Positions 16,701-43,623 of a stretch of DNA of 64,000 nt are shown here, one piece after another. Each line of letters begins with the position of its first letter. Positions within the stretch are counted from its first letter, which is position 1. The DNA lies in contig CM082593.2 in the NCBI GenBank assembly GCA_040954595.2, positions 6,270,172 through 6,334,171 of the forward strand, given 5' to 3'. This stretch comes from Balanoglossus misakiensis (lineage: Eukaryota; Animalia; Hemichordata). A program made the translations under genes and the position numbers. The notes under the pieces were generated by a model. The model ran no database searches. It was given only the letters and a program-made list of their open reading frames with translations, and was not told the DNA's origin.

Positions 16701-19700
16701 CACTGACTTGTTCAATTCTGCCTTCCAGGACTTGATTGAGAAAGTGATGATTCTCAAACGAGCGGTCGAGTTGACCAAGGGACGGGGCGCAGACACCAGC
16801 AGCCGTGGTCTAGCCAATAAACTTAGTGAATATGCCAAGCTGTTAGCGGCTCAAGGTAGCCTAGCAACAGCCATGCAGTATCTGGGAGAATCGCAGGAGG
16901 TAAAATAGATAGGGCTTTGTGAATGAATGAATGAATGAATGAATATATGTGTGTGTGTATTTATGGTTGTATGTATATATGTTTGTATGTAAATATGTAT
17001 GTATGTGTGTATGTACATGTATGTGTGTATGTATGTATGTATGTATGTGTATGTACATGTATGTATATCTGTAATGTATGTATGTATGTATGTATGTATG
17101 CATGCGTGTATGTATGTATGTATCAGTGTATGAATGAAATACCAAATAATTGAATTTGTAAAATATGTCAAGGTTCAAATGACCTCCAGTTGCTGATTTC
17201 CGTGTTTAAATCCGCTCCTTCATGATTGTTCTTTCAGCAATCCATCTCGGAATTGCGGGATCGTCTCTACAAGGCCCAAGGAGATGCGGTGTCAAATCTT
17301 CCGGAACCACCCTTTCCGTTCAAGAGAGTATCAGTCCGGGATAAACCTGAACCGACTCCAAGTCCAACACCTGTGCAGACAACACAACAACAACAGTATC
17401 AACAGGTAGGCATGATAACAATATACATAGTAATAGCTTACATTCTCATCTGCAAACACTTTGTAAATTTTTGTAGGATCTGCAGTGCATTGTTTTGGAA
17501 ATTGAATTCATTGTGGATTTTGCTGTTGATCTGTGCCATGCTGTCTCCAGATTGAACTATGACCCTTACTGACCTAAAAACTTTGATTCACACACAGGGC
17601 GTTGGAGTGAATTCTTTCCAGACGTCAACTGTAACGAGTAGTCAATACGCTGCAACCCAGGTGACAACGCAAGCCAGGCCGCAGCAGCGACAACCGCAAC
17701 AACAGTACTTCAACTACGACGACCAGATCGCCAATCAACCGGCCGGGGCGTACGAGACCACGCCCAAAGCAGCGGAGACCGCCGCCACCACCACGAATAT
17801 TTACTCAAAGCAGGGCGGGTTCGGGAAGTACCCGCAGTACCCGCAGAGCACCCTCACGCAGGGCTACAGCTACCCGGCCCACCAGGCCGGCTACAGCCAG
17901 GCCGGGTACGGCCAGTACGGACAGGGTACCACCACTGGTGGTGGTCCCGCCTCCGCCAACTACGGTGGCACGCCCAGTAGCTACAACACCAACACCACCG
18001 CCACCGCCAGTCAGCCCTACATGACCACCGGGATGGGCGCTGGCGGCGGTTACGGCCAACCGGCGGTGAGCACGCCAGGTGCGCCCAATATGGCCGGGCA
18101 GACAGGTGCGCCGGTGGTGGAGCCTCACGCAGCCATGGGGGCTGATTCGGCGCCTGGCTGGAATGATCCGCCATTGGTCAGATCCAAAAAGGTATGCGCT
18201 GTTTCGTTGTCGCTTATCGCAAGGTAGTGCGGTCAAAATGTCAGATAACGTCAGCACATCTTGTATGTACAAGTATAGCTGTATATTTATCCATTTACAC
18301 CAGTTATGCGCATCTTATGGTGGTACAGGCTGTATGATTTGTAAGAATTTTGCAATTTGCATTTTATTTCCGACATAAATTACCATCAATGAATGTTATG
18401 ATTTCACTATTTCTGGCCACATCGCAGCCTTCAATATCAGAAGCTTCTCTATCCATTGTAAATCACTTCTTTTTTTGAACCGTCCAATTTCCAGCCGGCA
18501 CCGGCCAAACAGCAGTACGTCGCCCCGGAGCCGATCACCACGCCCATATTCGGCGTCCCCCAAGAGGAGGTGCCCTCCCCGCCGGGCGTCGTCAACCAGG
18601 ACGCGCCCGGTGCACCCACGCCCTACGGACAACCCTCACAGGTATACAACCCAAGTGTTTACCAACCACAACAACATCAACAACAACAAAACACACCAGC
18701 AATTATTCCTCCTACTCCAATGTCTCCTACGTCAAGAACGCAGGTAACACCTCGGAAACGCGGAGAAATCTGGCAAAAGCTGAGAAAAAAGCAGGACTGT
18801 GCACTGTGTATACCCTAACAAGTTGATGTTCTGTCCTCTTAATCTTACTCAGGTTATCCTGTACAATAGTACAGTCCTCCATTTTAATGCAACTAAAACC
18901 AGTATTCACTAATCCAATAACCGTCATCTGTGTTACTGTAACCTGCTTCTTTTCTTTGCTTTTGCACTGTGTTTCTCTTCGTTTTTCTAACAAATCTAAC
19001 TTGTATTTTACTTTCTGGTATTAAATGCTAATGTAGCTATTTATTTTCCTAATGTAATGTAACTCACTTTGTATTTGTAACATGTACAGTGATTTGCTCG
19101 AGTGTGTGGTAACTGTCTTCCAGAATATAAATAGTTGGTGCACTTTATTGCTGATACAGAAAACATGTGCATAGTCTCAATACAAGAGGTGTGCTTGTAC
19201 AACCGATGCATGTACAGTTGCAGTACAGAGCATACACACACCTGGCCAAGAATCGTACCCACTGAAAAGTCGTTCTCTGTTTCAGCCGAGCCAACCGGAA
19301 CCTGAGCCCCCAAAGGAGAAGCCCCCAATCCCATCAGAACACCAAGTCTTGAGCGATACCTTTGACGGCTTAACCCAGAGATGTAGTAATGCTGCCAAAA
19401 ATCCTGTGAGTTCATTTACTTTGTTTTGTTAGCATTATTTCAGCTGGTGATCAATGACCAGTACATTAAACATTTCTGTAGTTAGTGTACTAGGAAGGTT
19501 TTTTCATGAAGTTGATATATTTTCTTTTTTTTATCCGCAGCAAATGAAGAGGAAACTAGATGATGTCAATAAAAGATTGAATGCACTGTACGATAAACTT
19601 AGAGAAAACGCTGTAAGTATTATACAAGCCAGGTTATTTGCTGAGATGCTCGTGTCCAGTTTTCCATCTTTTTTTTCTTTTTCTTTTTTTTTTTGGGGGG

Positions 19701-20117
19701 GGGGAGCTTATTGCCTTAATGTGATGTCAATCTTTTGTACGGAAGTTGCCCCCTCCCACCAAAAAAAAAATAGGCAACTGCCCTTATGGTGGTATACCAG
19801 TTAAAACCCAGTGGATCATGAATATTTTGTCAGACAAATTCTCGACTGACTTGTTTCTGTAACTTTATGGGAAAGCTTATTTGCCAATCGAGTATGGTTC
19901 TCTGTTTTATATAATTATTTTTTTTTTACATTTTCAGTTATCACCCAATGTACTGTCAGGGCTCCATGAAATGTCACAAGCTATCAACAATTACGATTAT
20001 CAACACGGTCTGGGCGTACACCAACATATAGTGGCCAGCGCGAATTTCTCGGAAATCGGAACATTTATGCCGGGACTCAAGGTGCTGATGCAAGTGGCTA
20101 CGCAACTCAAGGTTTAA
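10719..20117 (+). CDS. SEC31: Protein transport protein Sec31 (COPII outer coat; WD40 beta-propeller, ACE1 alpha-solenoid, Pro-rich region, C-terminal helical domain), 20 coding exons
   Basis: Exons read with phase-consistent splice sites: 10719-10831, 11511-11751, 11936-12073, 12302-12442, 12787-12929, 13302-13575, 13821-13949, 14283-14513, 14735-14971, 15205-15328, 15465-15643, 15847-15973, 16172-16320, 16729-16899, 17238-17405, 17598-18191, 18495-18743, 19286-19405, 19541-19612, 19938-20117. Characteristic Sec31 peptides: [130 protein letters not shown]. Confidence 0.97.
13006..13240. mobile_element. 235-bp MITE with TTAA target-site duplication (Kolobok-like, non-autonomous) in a SEC31 intron
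   Basis: TIR core AAGGGGTCGTCGCGCCGCGT / ACGCGGCGCGACGACCCCTT, with TTAA at 13002-13005 and 13241-13244. Superfamily inferred from the TTAA TSD and purine-purine termini. Confidence 0.75.
15675..15750. repeat. (TG)n/(TC)n compound microsatellite
   Basis: Read directly; intronic. Confidence 0.85.
16917..17137. repeat. (ATGA)n/(TATG)n degenerate microsatellite
   Basis: Read directly; intronic. Confidence 0.9.
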
Positions 20118-21460: not shown

Positions 21461-21969
21461 TGGGTGTATTCTGTGGCAGTACTTTCATAGACAGCAATCT
21501 CATGCAGTGACTCGGTGGTTATGAACGTCAACATTGTTTGATCAATATAATACCTCCTCTGAAAAAAGGGGAGTTATAAAACCCACAGTTGGCTAAGAAT
21601 GGCAGTAATTCTAATAAATTCTTTGGAGGGACGTTTGGAATATGTTTATTTTTGAGTCCTGCATGTGTTGGTGAGAGGTAATATACCAGATGGTGCCTAT
21701 TTTGCATGATACTAAATCACCGCTCTTGAGCACTAAGTCCACAATACCGACCTGGTTCCAGCACAACAATCGCTTAAACTGAACGAGGAAGTCCAGAATT
21801 AGAAATGGCAAGAGATAGCGGGTACAATAACACGTACATAAATCAATCGAGCAGACCTGTTGGACATTGTGTCATTAAGCAATTAAGAAGGAAAAAAATA
21901 ACAAAATCCACACATGCGTGTATTCTTTGGTGGGCAGGCTAATAAACTTCGAATTCCTGAAATGGCAAA

Positions 21970-22075
21970 TAGACATGACGACAGTTCCACACTGACCAAT
22001 GGACGTTGGATGCAGTTAATGTACACGCAAGTTTGTAATTAATGTAAACAGCACAACGTATATATAAAAAGAGCC
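21970..22075 (+). promoter_or_regulatory. CCAAT + TATA Pol II promoter of cassette unit 1
   Basis: ACATGACGACAG at ~21973, TGACCAATGG (CCAAT 21996) and TATAAAAAG at 22063. The same islands are conserved in unit 2 while the sequence between them has diverged. Confidence 0.7.
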
Positions 22076-22127
22076 TCCCGACTGCTCTATCGCCAGGAAC
22101 ATCACAAAGCTGCAGACACCCACGAAC

Positions 22128-22568
22128 ATGGCAGGTGGGACATTTTACCTGTGGCATTAATTTTTGCAAATAATTTGTGTCAATCTTTCAATGATCGCAG
22201 AGAATGTGTTGTTTCCACATCCTCTATCTGAACGTATACAATGAACTGAACTATTAACATATCGTTTCGTATTTTTCATTCCAGCAAACCGCGGAGATTT
22301 CCGCCTCGGGATCGAACATACAACAATCGCAGTTGCTTACCGAGATGGAATAGTGCGCGTGCGTGTACGAAAACGCAATTCAAGTCTTATGATAACGTGC
22401 TCATTAGACTTACTGCGACTGCGTATTAGAACACGCAATGCAACTCTGATGATAACTTGCCCATTAGACTATTTCACGAGAGCAGTGACTGTTTTAAGTG
22501 TAAGAACGATGAGAATGATCCGAGGTTTGCTGCTGTGGGCATGGTATATTGACAATAACGTAAGATAA
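22128..22568 (+). CDS. Unrecognised 96-aa Arg-rich small protein with an internal 19-aa repeat (cassette unit 1), two exons 22128-22134 and 22285-22568
   Basis: AAC-ATG-GCA-G|GTGGGA donor and TTTTTCATTCCAG acceptor. The spliced frame is open: MAANRGDFRLGIEHTTIAVAYRDGIVRVRVRKRNSSLMITCSLDLLRLRIRTRNATLMITCPLDYFTRAVTVLSVRTMRMIRGLLLWAWYIDNNVR. The unit 2 paralog differs by frame-preserving indels and by synonymous and missense substitutions. Confidence 0.7.
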
Positions 22569-22606
22569 AAAGACAATCGAAACCGGAAAGGACACGAAAA
22601 TTTGTC

Positions 22607-22763
22607 CCCTATCATTGGTATGTACCTTGTCGTGGTGATAGGGCAACTGGCCAGAGTCTGGTTCCCGTATTCCTCAACGTCTTAGGATCGGAAACTCTTC
22701 CATCAGTAAGACAAGCAACGGATACGTGTGACGTCAGAGACTGGCGAGACCAAATCATACCAA
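22607..22763 (+). ncRNA. HDV-like (delta-like) self-cleaving ribozyme 1A
   Basis: P1 CCCUAUC/GAUAGGG; P2 UUGGUAUG/CAUACCAA; P3 ACC/GGU; L3 UUGUCGU; P1.1 UG/CA; P4 CUGGCCAG..CUGGCGAG; J4/2 ACCAAA with the catalytic-position C at 22750. Same topology and junction lengths as the antigenomic HDV ribozyme. Confidence 0.85.
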
Positions 22764-22988
22764 GAGAGAGAAAAAGAAGTCTGCATGGATCCCTTGGAGC
22801 GACAGTAAATCACAATACCAAACGCTGACGCCAAGCCACTGGGTCAGTCGAAAAAAGAAGCAATTTTCAACCACAAACGAAAACAGACACCAACCCTGTC
22901 GACCGTCTCCAAGCCATAACCGACGTACTGTACATGTACTACGGACACAGTTAAACGCATTCATGCACACACACAGAACACCAACATT

Positions 22989-23121
22989 CCCTACCTAAGG
23001 CATGTACCTTGACGCGGTGGTAGGGCAACTAATTGGTTAGCAAAAGTTCAATGCAAGCGAAAAAAATAATTCTACAGAATCGTTACGTTTCATTTGCTAA
23101 CCAATTAGACCAAAACATGCC
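22989..23121 (+). ncRNA. HDV-like ribozyme 1B
   Basis: P1 CCCUACC/GGUAGGG; P2 GGCAUGU/ACAUGCC; P3 ACC/GGU; L3 UUGACGC; P1.1 UG/CA; 16-bp P4 CUAAUUGGUUAGCAAA/UUUGCUAACCAAUUAG; J4/2 ACCAAA (C at 23110). Confidence 0.88.
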
Positions 23122-24121
23122 GATCACATCCAAACCCCGAACACGAACTTCAGAAGTACACGAGAAATGATTCATACAAATGTACGAGCGTCACCCGCTA
23201 TGCCACGTACATATAGGCTTATATTACACCAATATGTATTTTATTAAAAATCATTAACAAGATTAGAGTTACAGTAAATATACCCTGCATGTTCCACACG
23301 TCCATCTAACCATGTAAGCACACAAGACGCCCAAATGGCAGGCTGGCATAGCGCATACTGCAAAACGGGCGCACGAACATGTAGCCACAGAAAACTGGTT
23401 CTTCGCGATCTCATATTTTTCTGTCAAAGTCTGCTCCTTTGCGGCAACGGCTACTGCGTTCGTGGAACGGAAACAAAGCCCTAGCTCACGTGAATGCACA
23501 ACAAGGAACAAAAGTTTGCCGGACTGTTCATATCATGGCAGATGACTTAACGGCCGACACTGGGGTGACATCACACAGGTTTATTTGGCCCCGCCCATTA
23601 AACAATAGGTCTTCTTTTCAAACGCAAAACAAACGAAATGTCACAGCCTGGGCACGCTGGACATTCACCTCAGACACCCATAGAACCTTCTGGAAAGCCC
23701 CGAAAAGTTGAAGATTTACCAAAATAGTCCTTAAAAATCAGTGGAAAAACCCTGGACGTATATTGACCATTTTATTTGCATATCTGGGGCAGCTGACAAA
23801 TAGGTCTTTGTTTACGCCCCAACAACGAGAAATAAAGATTTTGTGAAGTATGAAGTATTTTAATACGGGCGCATGGTATGTCGATACAATAGGTCTAGGT
23901 ATGTGCACAAGAACAGTGGGTCGTAAAATACACTATTTTATACTTGTTTATGTGTGTCTGTAATTTTGTTTGTCTGTCATCTTTAACTTCTTGCACTGCG
24001 GCTGATCGACACTGAGGTATATGACAAATCGAAAATAATGTAAAATGTGAACACTAAATTATAGACAAGAAGACGTCTAACCTATCCAAGCATTTTATCC
24101 AAGCATTGTAATCAAGTGTAT

Positions 24122-24125
24122 GAGA

Positions 24126-24188
<63 letters not shown>

Positions 24189-24204
24189 AGAGAGAGAGAG
24201 AGAG
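24122..24204. repeat. (GA)n microsatellite
   Basis: Read directly. Confidence 0.95.
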
Positions 24205-24289
24205 TCGGTCAGACAGACAGAGAAATAGACAGACATATCTTGGGTCGTGCTTTGAGTCATGAGTGTGTTCAATACAAACGGTTGACAAG

Positions 24290-24392
24290 TAAACATGACG
24301 ACAGCCTCGGGCAGGCCCGCACATTGACCAATGGATGATGGCTACTGAAACAGCAATGCGCACGCAAGTACAGCACAACGTATAAAAAGAGC
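24290..24392 (+). promoter_or_regulatory. CCAAT + TATA Pol II promoter of cassette unit 2
   Basis: ACATGACGACAG at ~24293, TGACCAATGG (CCAAT 24328), TATAAAAAG at 24381. Confidence 0.7.
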
Positions 24393-24445
24393 CTCCCGAC
24401 TGCTCTATCGTCAGGTAGTCGGAACATCACAAAGCTACAGACACC

Positions 24446-24847
24446 ATGAGCATCGCAGGTGAGGCATTTTACCTATGGCATTTGCAAATAATTTGCGTTG
24501 ATCTTTCTATTCAATGATCACAGAGAATTTGCTGTCGCCAAATCCTCTGTCTGAATGTACATGGACTGAATCAGTTCGACTCTTTTATTCCAGCAAACCT
24601 CACAGATTTTCTCCGACACACGACGATAACGGTTGTTTACCAGGATGGAGAAGTGCGTGTGCGTGTACGAAAACACAATTTGACTCTTCTTATGATAACT
24701 TGCTCCTTTGACTTTCTGCGACTGCGTATTAGAACACACAACGCAACTCTGATGATAATTTGTCCATTGGACTATTTCACGAGGGCAGTGACTGTTTCAA
24801 GAGTACAAGCGATGCGAATGATTCGAGGTTTGCTGCGGTGGGTATAA
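24446..24847 (+). CDS. Unrecognised 88-aa Arg-rich small protein (cassette unit 2 paralog), two exons 24446-24458 and 24594-24847
   Basis: ACC-ATG-AGC-ATC-GCA-G|GTGAGG donor and TCTTTTATTCCAG acceptor. The spliced frame is open: MSIAANLTDFLRHTTITVVYQDGEVRVRVRKHNLTLLMITCSFDFLRLRIRTHNATLMIICPLDYFTRAVTVSRVQAMRMIRGLLRWV. Confidence 0.7.
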
Positions 24848-25009
24848 TAGTGTCAGATAAGGAGACATTCGAGCTTCATAAAGATGTGAAGCCAGATAGC
24901 CAGGGCGGTTCCGTATGATTTCCATGTGCATGGTAACGGGCTACGGCCTGCACCAACTCCATCAACATATGTCTCTATCTACCTCCGTGTACAATCAGGA
25001 AGGACAATC

Positions 25010-25521
25010 ATCGCTATCCTAAGCTGAACAACAAAAAAAAAACTCGAAAAAAAGACCCCTGTCATGGGTCCCTTGTTTACGATAACGAAATCGAAACAAA
25101 AAAAAAATCGCTACCCGAAGCGGAACAACAAAAAAACACGAAAAAAAAAAACCCTGTCATGGGTCCCTTGTTTACGATAACGAAATCGAAACAAAACAAA
25201 TCGCTACCCGAAGCGGAACAACAAAAAACACGAAAAAAAAACCCTGTATCGGTCCGTTGTTTACGATAAACGAAATCGAAACAACAAAAAAATCGGTACC
25301 CTAAGCTGAACAACAAAAAAAACACGAAAAAAAGACCCCTGTCATGGGTCCCTTGTTTACGATATAGAAATCGAAACAAAACAAATCGCTACCCGAAGCG
25401 GAACAACAAAAAACACGAAAAAAAAAACCCTGTATCGGTCCGTTGTTTACGATAAACGAAATCGAAACAACAAAAAAATCGGTACCCTAAGCTGAACAAA
25501 AAAAAAACACGAAAAAAAGAC
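25010..25521 (+). repeat. A-rich minisatellite, ~90-95 bp period, ~5.5 copies, running into ribozyme 2A
   Basis: CCCTGT(C/A) recurs at 25057, 25152, 25242, 25337 and 25428. The next position in register is CCCTATC at 25522, the ribozyme P1. Confidence 0.92.
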
Positions 25522-25678
25522 CCCTATCATTGGTATGTACCTTGTCGTGGTGATAGGGCAACTGGCCAGAGTCTGGTTCCCGTATTCTTCAACGTCTTAG
25601 GATCGGAAGTTCTTCCATCAGTAAAACAAGCAACGGATACGTGTGACGTCAGAGACTGGCGAGACCAAATCATACCAA
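25522..25678 (+). ncRNA. HDV-like ribozyme 2A
   Basis: Core identical to 1A; differences are confined to the P4 insert. Catalytic-position C at 25665. Confidence 0.85.
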
Positions 25679-25901
25679 GAAAGAGAAAAAGAAGTCTGCA
25701 TGGATCCCTTGGAGCGACAGTAAACCACACTACCAAACGCTAACGCCAAGCCACTGGGTCAGTCGAAAAGAAGCAATTTCCAACCACAAACGAAAACAGA
25801 CACCAACCCTGTCGACCGTCTCCAAGCCATAACCGACGTACTGTACATGTACTACGGACACAGTAAGACGCATTCATGCACACAGACAGAACACCAACAT
25901 T

Positions 25902-26043
25902 CCCTACCTACGGCATGTACCTTGACGCGGTGGTAGGGCAACTAATTGGTTAGCAAAAGTTCAATGCAATTGAAGTGAAAAAAAAAATAATTCTACAAAA
26001 TCGTTACGTTTCATTTGCTAACCAATTAGACCAAAGCATGCCG
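25902..26043 (+). ncRNA. HDV-like ribozyme 2B
   Basis: As 1B. P2 is CGGCAUGU/GCAUGCCG (one extra C-G pair and a U-G wobble). Catalytic-position C at 26031. Confidence 0.88.
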
Positions 26044-26989
26044 ATCACATTCAAACCCCGAACACGAACTTCAGAAGTACACGAGAAATGTTTCATACGA
26101 ATGTACGAGCGTCACCCGCTATGCCACGTACATATAGGCTTATATTACACCAAGATGTATTTTATTAAAAATTATTAACAAGATTAGAGTTACAGTAAAT
26201 ATACCCTGCATGTTCCACACGTTCATCTAACCATGTAAGCACACAAGACGCCCAAATGGCAGCATAGCGCATACTGCAAAACGGGCGCACGAACATGCAG
26301 CCACAGAAAACGACCGGTTCTTTACGATCTCATATTTTTCTGTCAAAATCTGCTCCTTTGCGGCAACGGCTACTGAGTTCGTGGAACGGAAACAAAGCTA
26401 GAGTTGCACGAGAATGCACAACAAGGAACAAAAGTTTGCCGGACTGTTCATATATACCTATTTATGGCAGATGACTTAACGGCCGACACTGGGGTGACAT
26501 CACAGAGGTTATTTGGCTCCGCCCATTAAAAAATAGGTCTTCTTTGCAAACGCAGAAAAAAAAACGAAATGTCACAGCCTGGGCACGCTGGACATTCACC
26601 TCAGACACCCATAGAACGTTCTGGAAAGCCCCGAAAAGTTGAAGATTTATTCCACAGACCTGGGAAATTCTTGAAGATTAAATTAGCTACACATGATATT
26701 GTAAAACTCAATGTGGTGAACAGTCTCTCTGGAAACCCAAATAGTCCTTGAAAATCAGTGGAAAACCCTTAGACGTATACAATGACCATTTTATTTGCAT
26801 ATCTGGGGCAGCTGACCAATTGGTCTTTGTTTACGCCCCGACAACGATAAAGAAAGATTTTGTAATTTTGTGAAGTATGAAGTATTTAGGGGCGCATGGT
26901 ACATGTATGTCGATATAATAGGCCTATATGTGCACAAGAACAATGGGTGGTAAATTACACTATTTTATATTTTGTGTCTGTCAAATGTA

Positions 26990-26990
26990 T

Positions 26991-27056
<66 letters not shown>
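26990..27056. repeat. (GA)n microsatellite
   Basis: Read directly. Confidence 0.95.
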
Positions 27057-27059
<3 letters not shown>

Positions 27060-27235
27060 TGTATACCAAAAATGTTAAATCGATAAAAGATAGATATCTG
27101 TTGCCATGGTATCGCAGAGGAGGAAAACTTTCTCTACTTTACATCGCAGTACACGCCACATTTCTGTACAAGCATTTCGTTCGATTCTTTCTTCAACAAA
27201 ACCTGGACAAAACAGTTTTCTCAATAGACGTGTTA

Positions 27236-28370
27236 GCGCATGCGTATATAGGACAATATTCTTGATAAAAGCACGAATTTGGGCGGTTACCAGTCATAAT
27301 CAAATTGAAATGGACTGGCGAATATCAGCATAGCAGGTAAGGCGACATTTCATATGCCCCCAATTTGGTCAAAACATTTTCTTTTCTTTTGTTCTCGTTG
27401 GCCTTTCATAAATGTCACAAAATCCCGATCGCGTTATTACACTGTGATCTATATTGGTCAGAAACTGCCTCCTTCCTCCTATACCCCCCCCCCCCCCTGT
27501 ACTACCAAGTCTAAACACATGGAACTCATGATCCGACTGTGTCTTAATTTGTTTGTTTACGAATACATGGCGAGTAAATACCACCATAGCTAAAGCATAA
27601 GATTCATGATACAAATAACGACACAATCGGATCCAAAGCTCCCTGTGGTCTAAGCTTATACTGTTTCTGTGTGGCGGTAGCTAGCTATACATGTTATCTT
27701 GTTGACCGCCTGACTACAAGACGATTGTCACCTTCTTTGGAACATTGCCACGTTGACGCCATAGCTAACATTCAGATGACCTTTCGTTTTAGCTTCCAAT
27801 GAAACAGCCATTGAAATATTTTGTTGATTGCGGTCTGTCGACGTCGTTGCTAAGACAACACGGCCAAACAAGCCCAGGTGTCGCACGACATAACACCTCC
27901 ATTTAATTTTATGGCGTGAGAAAGCCGCTATTTTTCCAAATATATCTTTAAACGCGTTGTCAGGCATAGGGTCAAAATACAGAATTGGGTAGAGCGGACA
28001 GACCGTATACCTGCATATAATATTATCACGACATAACATGATAACAGTACAGAATATGGCCATAACATAACATAACACAACATAACATAACATAACATAA
28101 CATAACACAACACAACACAACACAACACAACACAACACAACACAACACAACACAACACAACACAACACAACACAACACAACACAACACAACACAACACAA
28201 CACAACACAACATAACATAACATAACATGGAGACAAAGAGACAGACAGGCGGAATAACAAGGAATACAATTTAATAATTCTTTTTCCTTTATTCTCTTTC
28301 AACTCACAGACACCAAGACGTGCACAATCGGAAAAACTTCTTTCTTTCCAACCAGCAACAAAGGATGAGC
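27236..28370 (+). pseudogene. Diverged 5' part of cassette unit 3: TATA-like box, exon 1 homologous to units 1/2 but with ATC in place of ATG, intron 27337-28309, non-homologous exon 2
   Basis: ATCAGCATAGCAG|GTAAGG versus unit 2 ATGAGCATCGCAG|GTGAGG. CGTATATAGG at 27243. Strong acceptor TTTTTCCTTTATTCTCTTTCAACTCACAG ending at 28309. Confidence 0.45.
28061..28227. repeat. (CATAA/CACAA)n pentanucleotide microsatellite
   Basis: Read directly. Confidence 0.95.
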
Positions 28371-28619
28371 AGAATCGCGCTCAATAAAAAAAAAAAAACG
28401 AAAAAAAAAATATAATGAATCGTTTGAGGGGAAATTGACCCCGTAGATGTTTCATGTTCTCAAGCCATTTACTGCAATTGCCTTTTCATAGTGTCTTTCT
28501 TTGGGTTTAAAAAAATATTTTATTCATTTTTGTCGGCTATGCTGGTATTCGCCCATAGTAGTCCATATAATTTCACGCAATCAACCAATGTAATTGTTTA
28601 CAAAAAAATTACAAAACCG

Positions 28620-28940
28620 GCTTTAAAAAATACCTACGAAAAAAAGGAAAAAAAGAAAAGATATTGAACAAAAAAAACGATAAAAGAAAAAAACATTGTT
28701 GAACAAAAAAAATATAAAAGAAAAAAATACCTACGAAAAAAAGGAGAAAAAAGAAAATACATTGCACAAAAAAATGATCAAAGAAAAAAAAAATTGTTGA
28801 ACAAAAAAAATATAAAAGAAAAAATACCTACGAAAAAAAGGAGAAAAAAGAAAATACATTGCACAAAAAAACGATAAAAGAAAAAAACATTGTTGAACAA
28901 AAAAAAATATAAAAGAAAAAAAAGATAAAATGGAAAAAAC
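28620..28940 (+). repeat. A-rich minisatellite, ~97 bp period, ~3 copies, just upstream of ribozyme 3A
   Basis: TACCTACG recurs at 28631, 28728 and 28825. Confidence 0.88.
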
Positions 28941-28971
28941 AATGAATGTTAATTAATTCCAATCAGTGATC

Positions 28972-29956
28972 CCCTACCGTTGGTATGTACCTTGTCGTGG
29001 TGGTAGGGCAACTGACCAGTGGAGGCGAGTGGGTGTCCGAAACGCAGCGGGGCCGTGTCGGTCAGAACCGAGGAGGCGCATGTCATTGCGGTAGTCTGAC
29101 CAGTGCAGCCATGGTTTGGAGCGGCGACCCACAAAGCGTGAAGGCGTGATCTCTCGTGGTGAGTAAAGTTTAACCATAGACCCTGGTTATATGATTGAAC
29201 AGATTATTGTGGGCACTGGCGTAGATGATATAGGTAAGGGTGGACCACAGTCGCTTGTTTTCTGGGCGGTCACCCCTGCTCGGGGCCAACCGGCTATGTC
29301 GTGACTTTCTCTATGACACAGCCGATCGGCCCGGCACCACCACCTGGGAAACAAGCGACCGTGCGATGGACACAGTTAGATTCGTTGCCCATTTTTCTCT
29401 CCGGACACTCCACGCAAGCAACTCGTTGGTCAACACATGCACACCTGTATATTTATACAAACAGCTATCCGTTACAGAATCACTTTTGATACTTGACAGC
29501 TTTGAAGACACGAGTTCTGGGGTAGATGGGCGAGCGAGGATTCACCTGCAAACGATACAAAACGACGAATTTGAACACATTCGCTTTCGAGTCACCGTGG
29601 CAGCATTTTGTGAACGTCTTCGATGAACTCCCGACATTGAACACACCGTTGAGATTCAGCCAGATTGGTATATCCGTTACAGTCTATACGCAGATTGCAG
29701 TACTATAGAACATCGTGCAATGAATGCAACAGGTGGGCCGGGTCGCATAGCTGGACTTTGCACCATACATGCAACCGGACAGAACGACCAGTAGAGTTAC
29801 AACGCATTATGCGGCAGCGAAGATGGTTTAATGTGAAACGAGATCACCATTGATCGACGAAATCGAAAGAACTATAAAAGAAGAAAACCACGGACCACTG
29901 GACACGTGAATATTTCAAGCAACTGCGACTGAACTGGCCAGGCAAAACCATACCAA
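28972..29956 (+). ncRNA. HDV-like ribozyme 3A with a ~930-nt P4 insertion
   Basis: 5' half 28972-29020: P1 CCCUACC/GGUAGGG, P2 UUGGUAUG, P3 ACC/GGU, L3 UUGUCGU, CA, P4 CUGACCAGU. 3' half 29933-29956: ACUGGCCAG, J4/2 GCAAAA (C at 29943), P2 CAUACCAA. Confidence 0.78.
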
Positions 29957-30061
29957 AAATCAAAACAATCAGCAAGCAATTATATTGGAGCTGTCAAAAA
30001 AAAATGAAACGAAATAAAACACTTACACACCTACATTCTACACACACGCCACACGTACATT

Positions 30062-30258
30062 CCCTACCTATTTGGCATGTACCTTGTCGTGGTGGTGGGG
30101 CAACTAATTGGTTAGCAATGGATGGCTCAGTGTTTATATGAAAACAACAACAACAACAACAAAACGTGGAATTCAAATTTTATTACAAATTTTCAACTGA
30201 TCAGTAAGGCTTATGAAGTTAACGCGTCCCGAGCTACCAATTAGACCAAAACATGCCA
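30062..30258 (+). ncRNA. HDV-like ribozyme 3B
   Basis: P1 CCCUACC/GGUGGGG (U-G wobble); P2 UGGCAUGU/ACAUGCCA; P3 ACC/GGU; L3 UUGUCGU; P1.1 UG/CA; P4 CUAAUUGGUUAGC/GCUACCAAUUAG around an unrelated insert; J4/2 ACCAAA (C at 30246). Confidence 0.85.
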
Positions 30259-30357: not shown

Positions 30358-31073
30358 TTAATAAAGGAAATCACATGGTACATGGATTGGGAAGGTACTG
30401 TGGGGATTTTCACAGATATGGGGTGAAGTCGTTTCCGCAAATCCGCTCTTTAGTGAAACACACACTGTTCTGTTGGAACCAAATCTGAATATTGTATCAT
30501 TGCAGATGGCAACGGATTTGCCAGTAGGTTCACTGAGTTGCCATTTCTTGAGAAGGTGTATCTCGCCGCAGTCGGGTGAATACTGAAATATGTTTTGTGT
30601 GCACTTTTTCTTTCCTCTTCCGTGACCGCCACGGGAAAATGTCACGATGTAGATTTCCCGGTTATTGCTGAGGACTGAAGCAGTCGAACAGTCTTTTGGT
30701 AAATCTATGGGAAGCGAGCCACTCCACAGATCTTCTTCTGGGTCGAACGTCACCATGCAAGAGCGGCTGGTGATATCTCCTGGGCAGAGAACGTAGAGTT
30801 TGCCCTGGTGTGCGGCAACCTTAGTCTGAAGTGAGCCATGCAGTCTTGCTCCAGAAATGCGGCAGGGCTATCTCGGGAGGTTCGGCCACGGGCTTCCAAG
30901 AGTTTGTGGTGAAACTGTACGTGTGGTGAATTCCTTCCCCGAAAACGTACACGGATTTGCCAACACTGCCCAGAGAATACGACACTGCGTGGTTAACGCC
31001 CTGGCACTGCAAATTGAGAGGTTCAAGTTCACACCACGCGTTAGTTTTTGTGTTGTACGCCAATGGGGTGAGA
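30358..31073 (-). pseudogene. Kelch/beta-propeller-like terminal exon with a frameshift (~30825-30870)
   Basis: Kelch-blade-like motifs AYNTKTNAW, VGKSVYVFG..YSFTTNSW, VAAHQGKLYV..TFDPEEDLW, NNREIYIV..QYSPD and ICNDTIFRFG fall in two different frames. Polypyrimidine-AG acceptor at 31075-31074. AATAAA on the minus strand at 30183-30178. No upstream exons found. Confidence 0.65.
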
Positions 31074-31075
31074 CT

Positions 31076-31294
31076 AAAACGAAGGAAACCGAAGGAAAAC
31101 GAAGGACGCTGATATCTCCATATTTTTGGGCGAAGGACGAGGTTTTCTGTATGCTGGAGGCCGAAGGACAGGTTTAGCGTCGTATAAACGGCCGAAGGAC
31201 AAGTTTAGCTTCGTATAAAAGGTCGAAGGAAAGCGAAGGACACTGATTTACCCATATTTTAGTGCGAAGGACACGGTTTTCTGTATGCTGGAGG
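31076..31294. repeat. Short CGAAGGA-rich repeat with a ~134-bp duplication bordering the satellite
   Basis: CGAAGGAC..GGTTTTCTGTATGCTGGAGG at ~31100-31160 and ~31234-31294. Confidence 0.7.
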
Positions 31295-34200
31295 AAATAA
31301 GAGTTCGCACCGCTGCGGTGCAAATAAGATCATTGTAGTTATGCTGCAATATAGTGCGGTAAATTTCCGACTTTTTCGAGAACACATCGTGATGGCGAAG
31401 GGTTCAGGAAGGCTTGACTTTTACCTCAAGGTGTCAACTGATGTTGGTTCGAGACCACTTTTTTCTATTTCTTTTTTTTGTGAGAACTTTTAACGACATT
31501 GTCATTGTAATGTTTCTCAATTTCATAAATCCAATTTATTTCAATATCTACGCTGCGTTTTTTATCTGTCGGGTATAAGAAACATGCAGGGAAACTTGGT
31601 CATTTTTTTTGTCGCGGTTCACTTGGGCAAGTCTGAATACGTAGTGCTCAGGAAAGAGAAAGATAAACTCGCTAAAATCGTGTCTTTCCGTCCGCATGAC
31701 CAACCAAGGAGCGAAAAAGTCATTATTTGGGCCGTAATAAAACGTTTTTGTCGCCGAGGAGTGAATAAAGAACTGTCAGATCGTTGCGGTGCAGGGAACT
31801 CTTATTTGCACAGCAGCGGTGAACTCTTATTTGCACCGCTGCGGTGCAAATAAGAGTTCGCACCGCTGCGGTGCAAATAAGAGTTCGCACCGCTGCGGTG
31901 CAAATAAGATCATTGTAGTTATGCTGCAATATAGTGCGGTAAATTTCCGACTTTTTCGAGAACACATCGTGATGGCGAAGGGTTCAGGAAGGCTTGACTT
32001 TTACCTCAAGGTGTCAACTGATGTTGGTTCGAGACCACTTTTTTTTCTATTTTTTTTTTGTGAGAACTTTTAACGACATTGTCATTGTAATTTTTATCAC
32101 TTTCATAAATCCAATTTATTTCAATATCTACGCTGCGTTTTTTATTTGTCGGGTATAAGAAACATGCAGGGAAACTTGGTCATTTTTTTTGTCGCGGTTC
32201 ACTTGGGCAAGTCTGAATACGTAGTGCTCAGGAAAGAGAAAGATAAACTCGCTAAAATCGTGTCTTTCCGTCCGCATGACCAACCAAGGAGCGAAAAAGT
32301 CATAATTTGGGCCGTAATAAAACGTTTTTGTCGCCGAGGAGTGAATAAAGAACGGTCAGATCGTTGCGGTGCAGGGAACTCTTATTTGCACCGCAGCGGT
32401 GAACTCTTATTTGCACCGCTGCGGTGCAAATAAGAGTTCGCACCGCTGCGGTGCAAATAAGATCATTGTAGTTATGCTGCAATATAGTGCGGTAAATTTC
32501 CGACTTTTTCGAGAACACATCGTGATGGCGAAGGGTTCAGGAAGGCTTGACTTTTACCTCAAGGTGTCAACTGATGTTGGTTCGAGACCACTTTTTCTCT
32601 ATTTCTTTTTTTTGTGAGAACTTTTAACGACATTGTCATTGTATTTTTTATCAATTTCATATATCCAATTTATTTCAATATCTACGCTGCGTTTTTTATC
32701 TGTCGGGTATAAGAAACATGCAGGGGAAACTTGATCATTTTTTTGTCGCGGTTCACTTGGGCAAGTCTGAATACGTAGTGCTCAGGAAAGAGAAAGATAA
32801 ACTCGCTAAAACCGTGTCTTTCCGTCCGCATGCATGACCAACCAAGGAGCGAAAAAGTCATTATTTGGGCCGTAATAAAACGTTTTTGTCGCCGAGGAGT
32901 GAATAAAGAACGGTCAGATCGTTGCGGTGCAGGGAACTCTTATTTGCACCGCAGCGGTGAACTCTTATTTGCACCGCTGCGGTGCAAATAAGAGTTCGCA
33001 CCGCTGCGGTGCAAATAAGATCATTGTAGTTATGCTGCAATATAGTGCGGTAAATTTCCGACTTTTTCGAGAACACATCGTGCTGGCGAAGGGTTCAGGA
33101 AGGCTTGACTTTTACCTCAAGGTGTCAACTGATGTTGGTTCGAGACCACTTTTTTTCTATTTCTTTTTTTTTTGTGAGAACTTTTAACGACATTGTCATT
33201 GTAATTTTTATCAATTTCATAAATCCAATTTATTTCAATATCTACGCTGCGTTTTTCACATGTCGGGTATAAGAAACATGCAGGGAAACTTGGTCATTTT
33301 TTGTCGCGGTTCACTTGGGCAAGTCTGAATACGTAGTGCTCAGGAAAGAGAAAGATAAACTCGCTAAAACCGTGTCTTTCCGTCCGCATGACCAACCAAG
33401 GAGCGAAAAGGTCATTATTTGGGCCGTAATAAAACGTTTTTGTCGCCGAGGAGTGAATAAAGAACGGTCAGATCGTTGCGGTGCAGGGAACTCTTATTTG
33501 CACCGCAGCGGTGCAAATAAGAGTTCGCACCGCTGCGGTGCAAATAAGATCATTGTAGTTATGCTGCAATATAGAGCGGTAAATTTCCGACATTTGCGAG
33601 AACACATCGTGCTGGCGAAGGGTTCAGGAAGGCTTGACTTTTACCTCAAGGTGTCAACTGATGTTGGTTCGAGACCACTTTTTTTTCTATTTTTTTTTTG
33701 TGAGAACTTTTAACGACATTGTCATTGTAATTTTTATCAATTTCATAAATCCAATTTATTTCAATATCTACGCTGCGTTTTTTATCTGTCGGGTATAAGA
33801 AACATGCAGGGAAACTTGGTCATTTTTTGTCGCGGTTCACTTGGGCAAGTCTGAATACGTAGTGCTCAGGAAAGAGAAAGATAAACTCGCTAAAACCGTG
33901 TCTTTCCGTCCGCATGACCAACCAAGGAGCGAAAAAGTCATTATTTGGGCCGTAATAAAACGTTTTTGTCGCCGAGGAGTGAATAAAGAACGGTCAGATC
34001 GTTGCGGTGCAGGGAACTCTTATTTGCACCGCAGCGGTGAACTCTTATTTGCACCGCTGCGGTGCAAATAAGAGTTCGCACCGCTGCGGTGCAAATAAGA
34101 TCATTGTAGTTATGCTGCAATATAGTGCGGTAAATTTCCGACTTTTTCGAGAACACATCGTGATGGCGAAGGGTTCAGGAAGGCTTGACTTTTACCTCAA

Positions 34201-37200
34201 GGTGTCAACTGATGTTGGTTCGAGACCACTTTTTTTCTATTTCTTTTTTTTTTGTGAGAACTTTTAACGACATTGTCATTGTAATTTTTATCAATTTCAT
34301 AAATCCAATTTATTTCAATATCTACGCTGCGTTTTTTATCTGTCGGGTATAAGAAACATGCAGGGAAACTTGGTCATTTTTTTGTCGCGGTTCACTTGGG
34401 CAAGTCTGAATACGTAGTGCTCAGGAAAGAGAAAGATAAACTCGCTAAAACCGTGTCTTTCCGTCCGCATGACCAAACAAGGAGCGAAAAAGTCATTATT
34501 TGGGCCGTAATAAAACGTTTTTGTCGCCGAAGAGTGAATAAAGAACGGTCAGATCGTTGCGGTGCAGGGAACTCTTATTTGCACCGCAGCGGTGAACTCT
34601 TATTTGCACCGCTGCGGTGCAAATAAGAGTTCGCACCGCTGCGGTGCAAATAAGATCATTGTAGTTATGCTGCAATATAGTGCGGTAAATTTCCGACTTT
34701 TTCGAGAACACATCGTGATGGCGAAGGGTTCAGGAAGGCTTGACTTTTACCTCAAGGTGTCAACTGATGTTGGTTCGAGACCACTTTTTTTTCTATTTTT
34801 TTTTTGTGAGAACTTTTAACGACATTGTCATTGTAATTTTTATCAATTTCATAAATCCAATTTATTTCAATATCTACGCTGCGTTTTTTATCTGTCGGGT
34901 ATAAGAAACATGCAGGGAAACTTGGTCATTTTTTGTCGCGGTTCACTTGGGCAAGTCTGAATACGTAGTGCTCAGGAAAGAGAAAGATAAACTCGCTAAA
35001 ACCGTGTCTTTCCGTCCGCATGACCAACCAAGGAGCGAAAAAGTCATTATTTGGGCCGTAATAAAACGTTTTTGTCGCCGAGGAGTGAATAAAGAACGGT
35101 CAGATCGTTGCGGTGCAGGGAACTCTTATTTGCACCGCAGCGGTGAACTCTTATTTGCACCGCTGCGGTGCAAATAAGAGTTCGCACCGCTGCGGTGCAA
35201 ATAAGATCATTGTAGTTATGCTGCAATATAGTGCGGTAAATTTCCGACTTTTTCGAGAACACATCGTGATGGCGAAGGGTTCAGGAAGGCTTGACTTTTA
35301 CCTCAAGGTGTCAACTGATGTTGGTTCGAGACCACTTTTTTTCTATTTCTTTTTTTTTTGTGAGAACTTTTAACGACATTGTCATTGTAATTTTTATCAA
35401 TTTCATAAATCCAATTTATTTCAATATCTACGCTGCGTTTTTTATCTGTCGGGTATAAGAAACATGCAGGGAAACTTGGTCATTTTTTTGTCGCGGTTCA
35501 CTTGGGCAAGTCTGAATACGTAGTGCTCAGGAAAGAGAAAGATAAACTCGCTAAAACCGTGTCTTTCCGTCCGCATGACCAAACAAGGAGCGAAAAAGTC
35601 ATTATTTGGGCCGTAATAAAACGTTTTTGTCGCCGAAGAGTGAATAAAGAACGGTCAGATCGTTGCGGTGCAGGGAACTCTTATTTGCACCGCAGCGGTG
35701 AACTCTTATTTGCACCGCTGCGGTGCAAATAAGAGTTCGCACCGCTGCGGTGCAAATAAGATCATTGTAGTTATGCTGCAATATAGTGCGGTAAATTTCC
35801 GACATTTTCGAGAACACATCGTGCTGGCGAAGGGTTCAGGAAGGCTTGACTTTTACCTCAAGGTGTCAACTGATGTTGGTTCGAGACCGCTTTTTTCTAT
35901 TTCTTTTTTTTTGTGAGAACTTTTAACGACATTGTCATTGTAATTTTTATCAATTTCATAAATCCAATTTATTTCAATATCTACGCTGCGTTTTTTATCT
36001 GTCGGGTATAAGAAACATGCAGGGAAACTTGGTCATTTTTTGTCGCGGTTCACTTGGGCAAGTCTGAATACGTAGTGCTCAGGAAAGAGAAAGATAAACT
36101 CGCTAAAACCGTGTCTTTCCGTCCGCATGACCAAACAAGGAGCGAAAAAGTCATTATTTGGGCCGTAATAAAACGTTTTTGTCGCCGAAGAGTGAATAAA
36201 GAACGGTCAGATCGTTGCGGTGCAGGGAACTCTTATTTGCACCGCAGCGGTGAACTCTTATTTGCACCGCTGCGGTGCAAATAAGAGTTCGCACCGCTGC
36301 GGTGCAAATAAGATCATTGTAGTTATGCTGCAATATAGTGCGGTAAATTTCCGACATTTTCGAGAACACATCGTGCTGGCGAAGGGTTCAGGAAGGCTTG
36401 ACTTTTACCTCAAGGTGTCAACTGATGTTGGTTCGAGACCACTTTTTTTCTATTTCTTTTTTTTTGTGAGAACTTTTAACGACATTGTCATTGTAATTTT
36501 TATCAATTTCATAAACCCAATTTATTTCAATATCTACGCTGCGTTTTTTATCTGTCGGGTATAAGAAACATGCAGGGAAACTTGGTCATTTTTTTGTCGC
36601 GGTTCACTTGGGCAAGTCTGAATACGTAGTGCTCAGGAAAGAGAAAGATAAACTCGCTAAAACCGTGTCTTTCCGTCCGCATGACCAACCAAGGAGCGAA
36701 AAAGTCATTATTTGGGCCGTAATAAAACGTTTTTGTCGCCGAAGAGTGAATAAAGAACGGTCAGATCGTTGCGGTGCAGGGAACTCTTATTTGCACCGCA
36801 GCGGTGAACTCTTATTTGCACCGCTGCGGTGCAAATAAGAGTTCGCACCGCTGCGGTGCAAATAAGATCATTGTAGTTATGCTGCAATATAGTGCGGTAA
36901 ATTTCCGACATTTTCGAGAACACATCGTGATGGCGAAGGGTTCAGGAAGGCTTGACTTTTACCTCAAGGTGTCAACTGATGTTGGTTCGAGACCGCTTTT
37001 TTCTATTTCTTTTTTTTTTGTGAGAACTTTTAACGACATTGTCATTGTAATTTTTATCAATTTCATAAATCCAATTTATTTCAATATCTACGCTGCGTTT
37101 TTTATCTGTCGGGTATAAGAAACATGCAGGGAAACTTGGTCATTTTTTGTCGCGGTTCACTTGGGCAAGTCTGAATACGTAGTGCTCAGGAAAGAGAAAG

Positions 37201-43100: not shown

Positions 43101-43623
43101 CTTCAGGGATCGGATTTTTCTACAGAACCAATATTTTCACAGCCACCACATGTTTGCATGCATATGCCTGTTTTTTCCTCAGCTGTTAGAGCAGTAGCTT
43201 TTTTCCTGCATTCCTGAAAAAGAAAGCAGCTAAAGAACTCCAAACCAAAGTCACGTCAAGGGGAAGATATTTCGTCCCTCAAGAGTGGGAACCTCAAAGG
43301 CTGTTTACTCGCTTGTCTCGCGTGGTCTGCCCGGTCATTTGCATCTAAAGTGATTTCTCTCGTTGTAATCTCGTCTTTTAAAGATTACAGAAAGACCACT
43401 CCTTTTTCCCCCCTCCATCACTATAAAGTGTGTTCAAATATAGAAACAATTCTTTCAAATAGCTTTTAATCGTACACAGCTTCCGAAGACAATTGGTGTC
43501 AGGATTCAATGGCGGTATTTGCTCAAAACAGTTCCAAGCATTTGATTTGTGAGAAAACTATCCCCCGCAAGTCATGAAGGAATCAGTTTGACCATGGTTA
43601 TGAAACTGCTTTTCACACCTTAA

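Follow-up and report, generated by a model that had tools for sequence, protein, structure and literature searches.

Classical HDV-like ribozymes, as presented in the parts of the literature drawn on here, are listed with an invariant G1 (PMC8495972), and the consensus pairs this G at +1 with U or C and places C-G pairs in P1.1 (PMC8495972, PMC6326823). A 3-bp P3 closing a 7-nt L3 is part of the descriptor outlined in the second of these sources. Variants with C at +1 have been described in fungi, where they cleave (Li and Breaker 2017, PMC5640933), and in C. briggsae, whose ribozyme (U-1/C1) is reported to react at 9.3 per min (PMC13635239). C1-type HDV ribozymes are described as cutting at the base of P1 to leave a 2',3'-cyclic phosphate and a 5'-OH, and as existing both with and without an E-loop (PMC13635239).

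Two further systems offer precedents for ribozymes in host or mobile transcripts. The 3'-UTR hammerhead of Clec2d lowers reporter expression by 80% (PMC2950038). For retrozymes a size of 150-450 bp is given, and RtcB circularises doubly cleaved RNAs in vitro (PMC7229834).

Within 8 kb of the 64-kb window (the whole stretch of DNA analysed, from an animal that is likely an acorn worm), we find three pairs of HDV-like folds in tandem, always A then B and on the + strand only. A small predicted spliced gene precedes pairs 1 and 2 only, and pair 3 has no ORF homologue. Because unit 3 keeps the pair with intact active sites but no ORF, the conserved module, judged from the sequence comparison, is the ribozyme pair and not the ORF. 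Our main reading, to which we give a probability of roughly 40%, is that each pair cleaves its transcript at two sites ahead of a candidate poly(A) signal; the coding part would thereby lose its tail, and a defined, end-protected RNA would be set free.

Six C1-type HDV-like folds

22607..22763, + strand: HDV-like fold 1A (C1 type), predicted cut 22606/22607
22764..22988, + strand: A/C-rich spacer of unit 1, from sequence comparison
22989..23121, + strand: HDV-like fold 1B, predicted cut 22988/22989
25522..25678, + strand: HDV-like fold 2A, predicted cut 25521/25522
25902..26042, + strand: HDV-like fold 2B, predicted cut 25901/25902
28972..29956, + strand: HDV-like fold 3A with a 930-nt P4 (29012-29941), predicted cut 28971/28972
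30062..30257, + strand: HDV-like fold 3B, predicted cut 30061/30062

The starts of these folds agree in all six cases with the cut sites of the original prediction (22606, 22988, 25521, 25901, 28971 and 30061). Every copy forms the nested double pseudoknot of P1, P2, P3, P1.1 and P4 in HDV order, with P1 paired at 7/7 positions (a single U-G, in 3B). A relaxed structure descriptor, written after the sites had been seen, returned exactly these six + strand sites over the window, none on the - strand and none in 60 dinucleotide shuffles of the window. Across the five of six copies that were aligned, 98.5% of 135 cells are paired and 6 of 27 pairs are changed on both sides, against at most 2 when partners were slid as a control, most of the changes reflecting the single split between A and B folds, whose P2 and P4 types stay distinct from unit to unit.

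The bases of the putative active site are conserved. All six folds retain the catalytic C, the two adenines of J4/2 and, in L3, the U and the G; in HDV numbering, C76, A78 and A79 are invariant, as is the U19-A80 pair, with position 81 unconstrained (T, A, T, G, C, A). J4/2 reads CCAA in five folds and CAAA in one, in line with a catalytic C followed by N-A-A (PMC2175327, PMC6326823). P3 consists of A-U, C-G and C-G closing a 7-nt L3 (TTGTCGT in four folds, TTGACGC in two) in which the first U and the reverse-wobble C-G are present, and the homopurine 42.75 pair is A.A in five folds and A.G in one. Antigenomic HDV, as described in PMC2175327, shares these P3 pairs, which were the commonest selected there, along with the 42.75 homopurine pair, the J4/2 spacing, the 19-80 pair and the free position 81. 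The folds depart from it in carrying C1-G rather than G1 at the cut site and U-A/G-C rather than two C-G pairs in P1.1, each in 6/6 copies, and in being chromosomal, of single polarity and without delta antigen.

Closer likenesses are found among the C1-type variants of fungi and C. briggsae, a comparison made on the features described for them. Common to both are the nested double pseudoknot, C at +1 and the J4/2 catalytic C; the fungal set also has the C-G pair at the cleavage site (PMC5640933), and an extra nucleotide between P2 and P3, usually C in fungi, is U in all six folds here. P1.1 is U:A plus C:U in C. briggsae (PMC13635239) and U-A plus G-C here, and we found no tested ribozyme with exactly this P1.1 in the literature consulted. 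Peculiar to the present locus, relative to these variants, are the fixed A/B pairs behind a promoter and a single fold with a 930-nt P4. Two subtypes were considered and rejected: the classical G1 type, given the C1-G pair and U-A/G-C P1.1 in every copy and the lack of an Rfam match, and the fungal E-loop type, as the base of P4 is helical, every copy pairing 7 or all of its first 8 positions and having no E-loop. Rfam gave no match at gathering score in the 64 kb, hammerheads included, and a search of 9.5 kb gave a single unrelated match (E 3.8). The C1 nucleotide, the swapped P1.1, the 930-nt P4 of 3A and the hexamers behind fold B had no place in the original prediction.

Since published C1 variants cleave, self-cleavage of the six folds is likely. 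The HDV-like assignment first proposed for this locus is thus well supported by the structure and by those variants, as is the predicted release of a ribozyme-bounded RNA. We consider it quite unlikely that the folds, once formed in the cell, show slow cleavage or none and instead serve a normally polyadenylated 3' UTR as stable structures or as elements that bind proteins. In favour of such a role, G1 is absent, a hexamer follows each pair, and J1/2 of the A folds is only 1 nt if P2 is fully paired, a spacer length that gave little cleavage in another HDV-like ribozyme (PMC4908430). Local folding, in a model without pseudoknots and without the 3' half, also has the leader outcompeting P1 in 1B and 3B (P1 probability 0.00-0.01) and partly in 1A (~0.6). 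Against this, the catalytic C, J4/2 adenines, L3 U/G and homopurine pair are kept in all six copies while tolerant neighbours vary, and C1 variants are reported to be fast in vitro (PMC5640933, PMC13635239).

The small predicted spliced gene and the third unit

21975..22069, + strand: unit 1 promoter-like region, CCAAT box 21996-22000, TATA box 22059-22069
22128..22134, + strand: unit 1 exon 1 coding part (M-A, phase 1)
22135..22284, + strand: unit 1 predicted intron, GT-AG, hairpin at ~22195-22230
22285..22568, + strand: unit 1 exon 2 CDS, 96-aa protein, predicted five-strand beta-meander plus helices
24294..24387, + strand: unit 2 promoter-like region, TATA box 24381-24387
24446..24458, + strand: unit 2 exon 1 coding part (M-S-I-A, phase 1)
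24459..24593, + strand: unit 2 predicted intron, GT-AG
24594..24847, + strand: unit 2 exon 2 CDS, 88-aa protein, 72% identical to that of unit 1
27327..27343, + strand: 17-nt look-alike in unit 3 of the unit 2 exon-1/donor site, no in-frame ATG

In units 1 and 2 the gene model that had been put forward holds at the level of prediction: junctions 22134^22285 and 24458^24594 follow GT-AG in phase 1, splicing across them would yield frames open for 96 and 88 aa, and the unit 1 stop ends at 22568, 38 nt upstream of the first cut, as stated. Starting at the TATA box, 30 nt are identical between the two units; upstream of this block the promoter is 83% identical. The unit 1 ATG aligns to ATC in unit 2 and the unit 2 ATG to ACG in unit 1; the start codon has thus turned over in frame. 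Frame 0 of the ORF has no stop where the other five frames carry 2-14, both internal indels are in frame, and pN/pS is 0.136/0.268 (omega 0.45, Fisher p 0.013), although the antisense frame gives a similar pN/pS of 0.50. The protein belongs to no known family: no convincing relative was found, with no Pfam match at E 0.1 and no Foldseek match at E 0.001. Its structure model (pLDDT 63.6) was built from 3 sequences, and polo boxes account for 7 of the best 13 VIA rows at Z 6.2-7.1, which is within background.

The third unit is where the expectation of three full units fails in part. Pair 3 is present, but nothing homologous to the promoter, the intron or exon 2 precedes it: the local alignment score is 31 against a shuffle mean of 32, and tblastn and nhmmer returned nothing. 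The 17-nt look-alike has 2 mismatches in 17, with 0.08 such sites expected for a pattern that was picked after it was seen; a TATA-like motif lies ~90 nt upstream, and acceptor-like sites are found at 28309 and 28355. The proposed tie between ORF and ribozymes is accordingly seen in units 1 and 2, and is weaker than had been claimed because pair 3 persists, active sites intact, with no ORF.

Two predicted cuts and the fate of the 3' end

Under the double-cut reading, the units would be transcribed and spliced, and cleavage at both sites would follow co-transcriptionally to give three products:

(i) A capped coding piece without a tail.

(ii) Fold A plus spacer, 380-382 nt (1090 nt in unit 3), whose ends could be joined into a circle by RtcB.

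(iii) Fold B with a poly(A) tail.

On balance this would likely dampen protein output, much as the Clec2 3'-UTR hammerhead does, and likely also yield a stable RNA, linear or circular, of the kind known from retrozymes. In 3/3 pairs neither fold is damaged, and selection appears to act on the making of two cuts, since units 1/2 and unit 3 share only the fold cores and the leader of B and differ in spacer, P4 interior and ORF.

The rodent Clec2 hammerhead, as far as PMC2950038 describes it, likewise sits between the stop and the tail of a Pol II mRNA and tolerates long loop insertions; it is a single hammerhead, whereas two HDV-type folds in series would release a middle piece. Animal non-LTR retrozymes (PMC7229834) resemble the locus in that two same-strand cuts would free a 150-1000-nt RNA with RtcB-compatible ends. 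They differ in consisting of type I hammerheads in head-to-tail, near-identical monomers, where we see two distinct HDV folds, a TATA promoter and an intron. A retrozyme proper was rejected: Rfam finds no hammerhead, the two folds of a pair are unlike in P2 and P4, and no second copy of the spacer follows fold B. A viroid-like or delta-like circle was rejected as well. The viroid-like unit suggested for this locus finds no support because the pieces predicted to be released do not fold into rods (as circles they are 53-63% paired and form 5-18 hairpins) and the - strand has no ribozyme fold.

23243..23248, + strand: ATTAAA, candidate poly(A) signal, 122 nt past fold 1B
25030..25521, + strand: A-rich 95-bp minisatellite, unit 2
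26164..26169, + strand: ATTAAA, 122 nt past fold 2B
28625..28922, + strand: A-rich 97-bp minisatellite, unit 3, ending ~50 nt before fold 3A
30360..30365, + strand: AATAAA, 103 nt past fold 3B, overlapping the end of a - strand Kelch-type frame

A(A/T)TAAA lies 103-122 nt behind fold B in all three units and hints weakly at poly(A) signals, given that 18% of window positions have a hexamer within 125 nt, that units 1 and 2 are not independent and that the third hexamer overlaps a coding stop. The original prediction had the mRNAs processed at the 3' end by self-cleavage rather than polyadenylation. That a translated mRNA normally ends by cleavage at fold A, a templated A-rich tract taking over from poly(A), we regard as unlikely. 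In its favour, units 1 and 2 were confirmed to have no AATAAA on the way from the stop codon to fold A, and they have no ATTAAA there either, and the ORF evidence for purifying selection suits a translated message. By A content, the 300 nt upstream of 2A and 3A are among the highest 0.4% and 0.1% of the window; their longest A-runs measure 11 and 13 nt, A makes up 66% of 28592-28945, and the two minisatellites are not alignable beyond chance (132/200 shuffles score as high), which also speaks for it. Set against these, the 38-nt 3' UTR of unit 1 has no run of at least 5 A, and each 95-bp repeat of unit 2 contains, in degenerate form, the leader together with the first ~25 nt of fold A, so that an array amplifying the leader and ribozyme 5' end may have inherited its A-richness. 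The richest tract belongs to unit 3, which has no ORF and in which an AATAAA (28383) precedes fold A; fold B, moreover, is left without a role. Together with the hexamer, weak as it is, behind each pair, the missing A-run in unit 1 leaves cleavage in place of polyadenylation disfavoured.

Gene family or mobile element

We judge it somewhat unlikely that the pair belongs to a mobile element of a dispersed, non-autonomous kind, either a retroposon headed by a ribozyme or an HDV retrozyme with fold A plus spacer as monomer, the small gene being just a neighbour that supplies transcription. In favour of this, HDV-like ribozymes are described as commonly heading non-LTR elements (PMC6765202), pair 3 has no ORF homologue, and the piece predicted to be released is of the retrozyme size given above (PMC7229834). 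Between units 1 and 2, identity is 83% in promoter, intron and exon 2 and 96-97% from fold A on; the high identity begins at +1 of fold A, where the first 60 nt are 100% identical, and continues for ~1.35 kb towards a (GA)n tract that ends both units. Such a jump fits RNA-mediated copying of a ribozyme-headed element. The 3' UTR just upstream of fold A is, however, also similar in units 1 and 2, which fits tandem duplication plus gene conversion. All six folds lie within the same 8 kb, with none elsewhere in the window; A and B keep their own P2 and P4 types rather than being identical repeats; and a longer element would be cut apart by the intact fold B inside it. Pair 3 has a 7-nt direct repeat on its flanks, and boundary tests found 7-8-nt repeats in 4/9 cases, A-rich and mostly offset from the ends, against repeats of at least 7 nt in 32/500 random window pairs.

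No RT- or transposase-sized frame occurs in 21.5-30.3 kb, where the longest stop-free frame (180 codons) runs over a microsatellite, and Pfam found no RT or transposase family in the 42 frames searched out of the 100 listed with at least 55 aa (20-31.5 kb); the earlier remark that neither enzyme is encoded nearby thus stands for these frames. The 5' HDV-like ribozymes of non-LTR elements (R2, RTE, L1Tc and their short partners; PMC6765202) share the ribozyme class and, for units 1 and 2, a conserved block past the cut with divergent sequence upstream. The locus differs from them in that it lacks an RT frame and a clear target-site duplication, contains a further intact ribozyme internally and is locally clustered.

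Quite unlikely, in our estimate, is the fuller proposal of an animal gene family in which a fixed HDV-type pair processes the Pol II transcripts, with the first cut as the 3' end of a translated mRNA replacing poly(A), aided by DNA-encoded A-runs, and the excised RNA joined by RtcB into a stable circle, the unit 3 circle of 1.1 kb carrying a short frame in its P4 arm:

29366..29626, + strand: doubtful 86-codon ATG frame inside P4 of fold 3A

This frame is open for 55 further codons past one TGA, and 139 and 67 of 2000 shuffles reach the respective lengths.

Six folds at the predicted cut sites

Six HDV-like folds, an A and a B in each of three tandem units (1A to 3B), start at window positions 22607, 22989, 25522, 25902, 28972 and 30062, where the original prediction had placed its cut sites, and all six follow one order of elements: P1, J1/2, P2, P3, L3, P3', P1', P1.1', P4, J4/2 and P2'. 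A relaxed descriptor, composed after the sites were already known, with the +1 base (the first after the cut) unfixed and P4 allowed up to 1000 nt, finds six sites on the + strand of the window, none on the - strand and none in 60 shuffles; an Rfam search matched none of the folds. When five of the six copies are aligned (3A was omitted because of its length), 98.5% of 135 cells are paired, and both sides have changed in 6 of 27 pairs against at most 2 in slid controls. These changes mostly amount to a single A/B split, and since P3 and P1.1 are invariant, covariation backs P1, P2 and P4 only. P1 of 3B contains a single wobble, U-G on the + strand. P4 is 80-141 nt long in the B folds; among the A folds, 1A and 2A have 102 nt and 3A has 930 nt. 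In 3A the closing helix has an ensemble probability of 0.75-0.91, the same bases being otherwise paired in the single best structure, and the interior folds on a par with shuffles (z -1.0). An alternative register that places a classical P1.1 at the GG before CAA was dropped because P1 would be only 4 bp, with no CC in L3.

The core corresponds base for base with that of the antigenomic HDV ribozyme (PMC2175327). The P3 pairs (A-U, C-G, C-G) are the commonest among selected variants there (80, 82 and 56%); the purine pair atop P4 is A.A in five folds, the choice of 79% of selected active variants, and A.G in one (PMC2175327). The catalytic C, A78, A79 and the U19-A80 pair are present in all six, while position 81, extruded in the antigenomic ribozyme (PMC2175327), is occupied by four different bases. 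The six folds very probably do self-cleave.

Two deviations from the classical consensus stand out: a C1-G pair at the cut and a U-A/G-C P1.1. One review treats G1 as invariant (PMC8495972), and a design study kept G1-Y and a C-G P1.1 fixed (PMC6326823). Among 230 fungal variants, C-G at the cleavage site is typical, together with an additional base between P2 and P3, and for two of them cleavage at the P1 base has been demonstrated (PMC5640933); a Caenorhabditis briggsae ribozyme with U-1/C1 and a P1.1 of U:A, C:U reaches 9.3 per min (PMC13635239). The available text of PMC8233481, PMC9901934, PMC3774820, PMC10879173 and PMC8256844 holds no data on a C1-G pair. What counts against activity is that J1/2 of the A folds is 1 nt if P2 is fully paired, a spacer length giving little cleavage in PMC4908430, and that the leader is predicted to compete in 1B, 3B and partly 1A; that the folds are structures without cleavage nevertheless appears distinctly improbable. 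Misfolding has been reported for pyrimidine-purine pairs at the HDV cut site, and the swapped P1.1 could act as a putative guard against such a slip.

We regard the six as predicted new members of the C1-type HDV variants already published, outside both the classical G1 consensus and the fungal E-loop subtype. The exact motif had no match in viral contigs, and blastn of phages gave none. Looser core motifs occur outside animals at 10 metagenome, at least 120 viral and 15 prokaryote loci; a loose filter on P1 and P2 retained 4 of the 145 core matches listed. In each of these the P1 strand lay over 100 nt upstream, and, judged by P1 and P2, the four were put down to chance.

The predicted small gene and the divergence of the units

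A CCAAT box, a TATA box with a 30-nt identical block and a GT-AG phase-1 intron are found in both unit 1 and unit 2, with frames of 96 and 88 aa, respectively, for a predicted small spliced gene. Its two internal indels both preserve the frame, one start codon has been replaced by another in frame, and omega is 0.45 across 82 codons (p 0.013). The coding frame has no stops versus 2-14 in the other frames; an antisense frame gives a similar pN/pS of 0.50. The predicted protein contains a 20-aa internal repeat in which Arg alternates with hydrophobic residues, a pattern from which nucleic-acid binding might be guessed. No homologue was found at E 1 among proteins of 51-165 aa, nor any family. 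Searching with phmmer gave two matches: P0121, a cuttlefish tandem-repeat prediction, was rejected as a short match added up across 13 repeats, and P0122 (E 1.7e-4), with a similar 20-aa repeat, is a lead only. The top score of an Atlas search (0.79) is not convincing as a relative. A low-confidence model (pLDDT 63.6, 3 sequences) predicts five beta-strands and C-terminal helices, and its fold-search matches, several of them polo boxes, are unspecific and at background level. N-x-S/T motifs lie in both 20-aa repeats of both protein copies (window 22344-22530), with no obvious signal peptide.

The predicted intron of both units carries a hairpin (window 22195-22230 and 24520-24552) with one pair changed on both sides and flanks of ATGATC and CTGAA. 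It is possibly a small intronic RNA or a splicing element; a C/D snoRNA or SECIS element was dropped on spacing rules applied by eye and on the lack of an Rfam match.

Units 1 and 2 are 83% identical over the promoter, the intron and exon 2 and 92% over the short first exon; across fold A, spacer, fold B and the next 600 nt the figure is 96-97.5%. The first 60 nt of fold A, counted from +1, are 100% identical, and the two preceding bins stand at 6/10 and 8/10. We read this as recent homogenisation of the two units from fold A onward, through either copying of a cleaved RNA or gene conversion with repeats as its bounds. A mobile element with no relation to the ORF is a reading we hold to be unlikely. 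No tRNA-derived SINE head was found, and by its defining features the locus is no autonomous retrotransposon.

The original prediction had three full tandem units; the third ribozyme pair is present, and homologues of the promoter, intron and exon 2 were looked for in unit 3 and not found. In this unit a 17-nt stretch resembles the exon-1/donor site but lacks an ATG in frame; two acceptor-like sites are also present, as is an AATAAA at 28383. Unit 3 may be a paralogue that has decayed or is non-coding. An 86-codon frame within P4 of 3A (29366..29626, +) is marginal, its 130-codon open stretch being reached by 139 of 2000 shuffles and its 186 codons with one stop by 67 of 2000; it has no homologue, matches no Pfam family below E 0.05 and is unlike the small protein. 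Alignment of unit 3 with units 1 and 2 is confined to the ribozyme cores, the A/C-rich leader of B and the base of its P4, and the A-type and B-type P2 and P4 are each retained across all three pairs. The selected unit thus appears, from these alignments, to be two cuts in series, and neither the ORF nor the sequence of the released piece.

Proposed fate of the transcript

As the original prediction had it, units 1 and 2 have no AATAAA, nor an ATTAAA, from the stop codon to fold A. Hexamers follow fold B, ATTAAA at 122 nt in units 1 and 2 and AATAAA at 103 nt in unit 3, against a background in which 18% of window positions have one within 125 nt. The sequence before 2A and 3A consists of extremely A-rich minisatellites, with A-runs of up to 11 and 13 nt; unit 1 has no A-run of 5. 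The array of unit 2 is an amplified leader plus about the first 25 nt of fold A. Within it (window 25057-25351), six alternative strands pair 7/7, with wobbles, with the P1 3' strand of 2A, so that further upstream cut sites are conceivable.

That the ribozyme cut forms the productive mRNA end, a reading that would suit the hexamer-free stretch before fold A, we consider quite unlikely. We tentatively favour, at a probability of roughly 40%, a double cut: Pol II would transcribe the unit, the transcript would be spliced, and both folds would cut co-transcriptionally before the poly(A) signal. The coding piece would lose its tail and its output would be damped, an effect that the Clec2d hammerhead has in a reporter (PMC2950038). 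The middle piece, between the two cuts, would begin with a nuclease-resistant HDV fold, a fold with a long half-life (cited in PMC11331408), and its ends would be of the kind joined by RtcB in retrozymes (PMC7229834).

The predicted released pieces measure 382, 380 and 1090 nt; on the + strand, no ATG frame of the two shorter ones exceeds 34 codons. All three pieces, when folded as circles, are branched and without rod shape; with no folds on the - strand either, the viroid-like unit once proposed is not upheld. By their defining features the folds are not viroid-like circles, nor are they retrozymes, though they may work like the latter. A fixed A/B pair behind a predicted spliced gene, in three repeats and with one 930-nt P4, is apparently new: no such arrangement appeared in the literature searched on hemichordate, paired or 3'-UTR HDV-like ribozymes, a scope outside which most subscription literature falls. 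With promoter, intron, stop codon and cut sites all predicted and poly(A) candidates lying downstream, the six folds have a readable setting in which their role is testable to the single base. If a host transcript is doubly cut, it would be a natural counterpart to engineered twin-ribozyme circular-RNA systems, and the 930-nt P4 indicates the size of cargo an HDV-like fold may bear.

Genomic setting

The locus occupies the gap between two convergent genes, and a third predicted gene lies further right:

11488-20117, + strand: Sec31A, by exon identity, apparent end 20117
30358-31204, - strand: Kelch-type gene or frame, weak Pfam matches, ending at 30358
57066-59274, + strand: SPARC-like gene with Kazal and EF-hand exons

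Compared with Sec31A of the acorn worms Ptychodera flava and Glandiceps talaboti, an exon of the left gene shows 92% identity, against 80% for Branchiostoma, which makes a hemichordate host likely. The analysis drew on the window, public collections and the literature. On the opposite strand, the Kelch-type gene ends 100 nt away from fold 3B. An AATAAA at window 21941 lies about 120 nt upstream of the unit 1 TATA box; were it the signal used by Sec31A, transcription reading through could reach unit 1 too. Adjoining the Kelch-type frame is a tandem array (window 31295-38485) in which a unit of about 555 bp recurs some 13 times with 95-97% identity; every unit contains a short palindromic sub-repeat of 25-27 bp, and two frames inside the array have no Pfam match. 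A 613-bp repeat is present in two inverted copies (window 43620-44231 and 57379-57982) of 97% identity and is perhaps a young MITE, since its ends resemble imperfect terminal inverted repeats.
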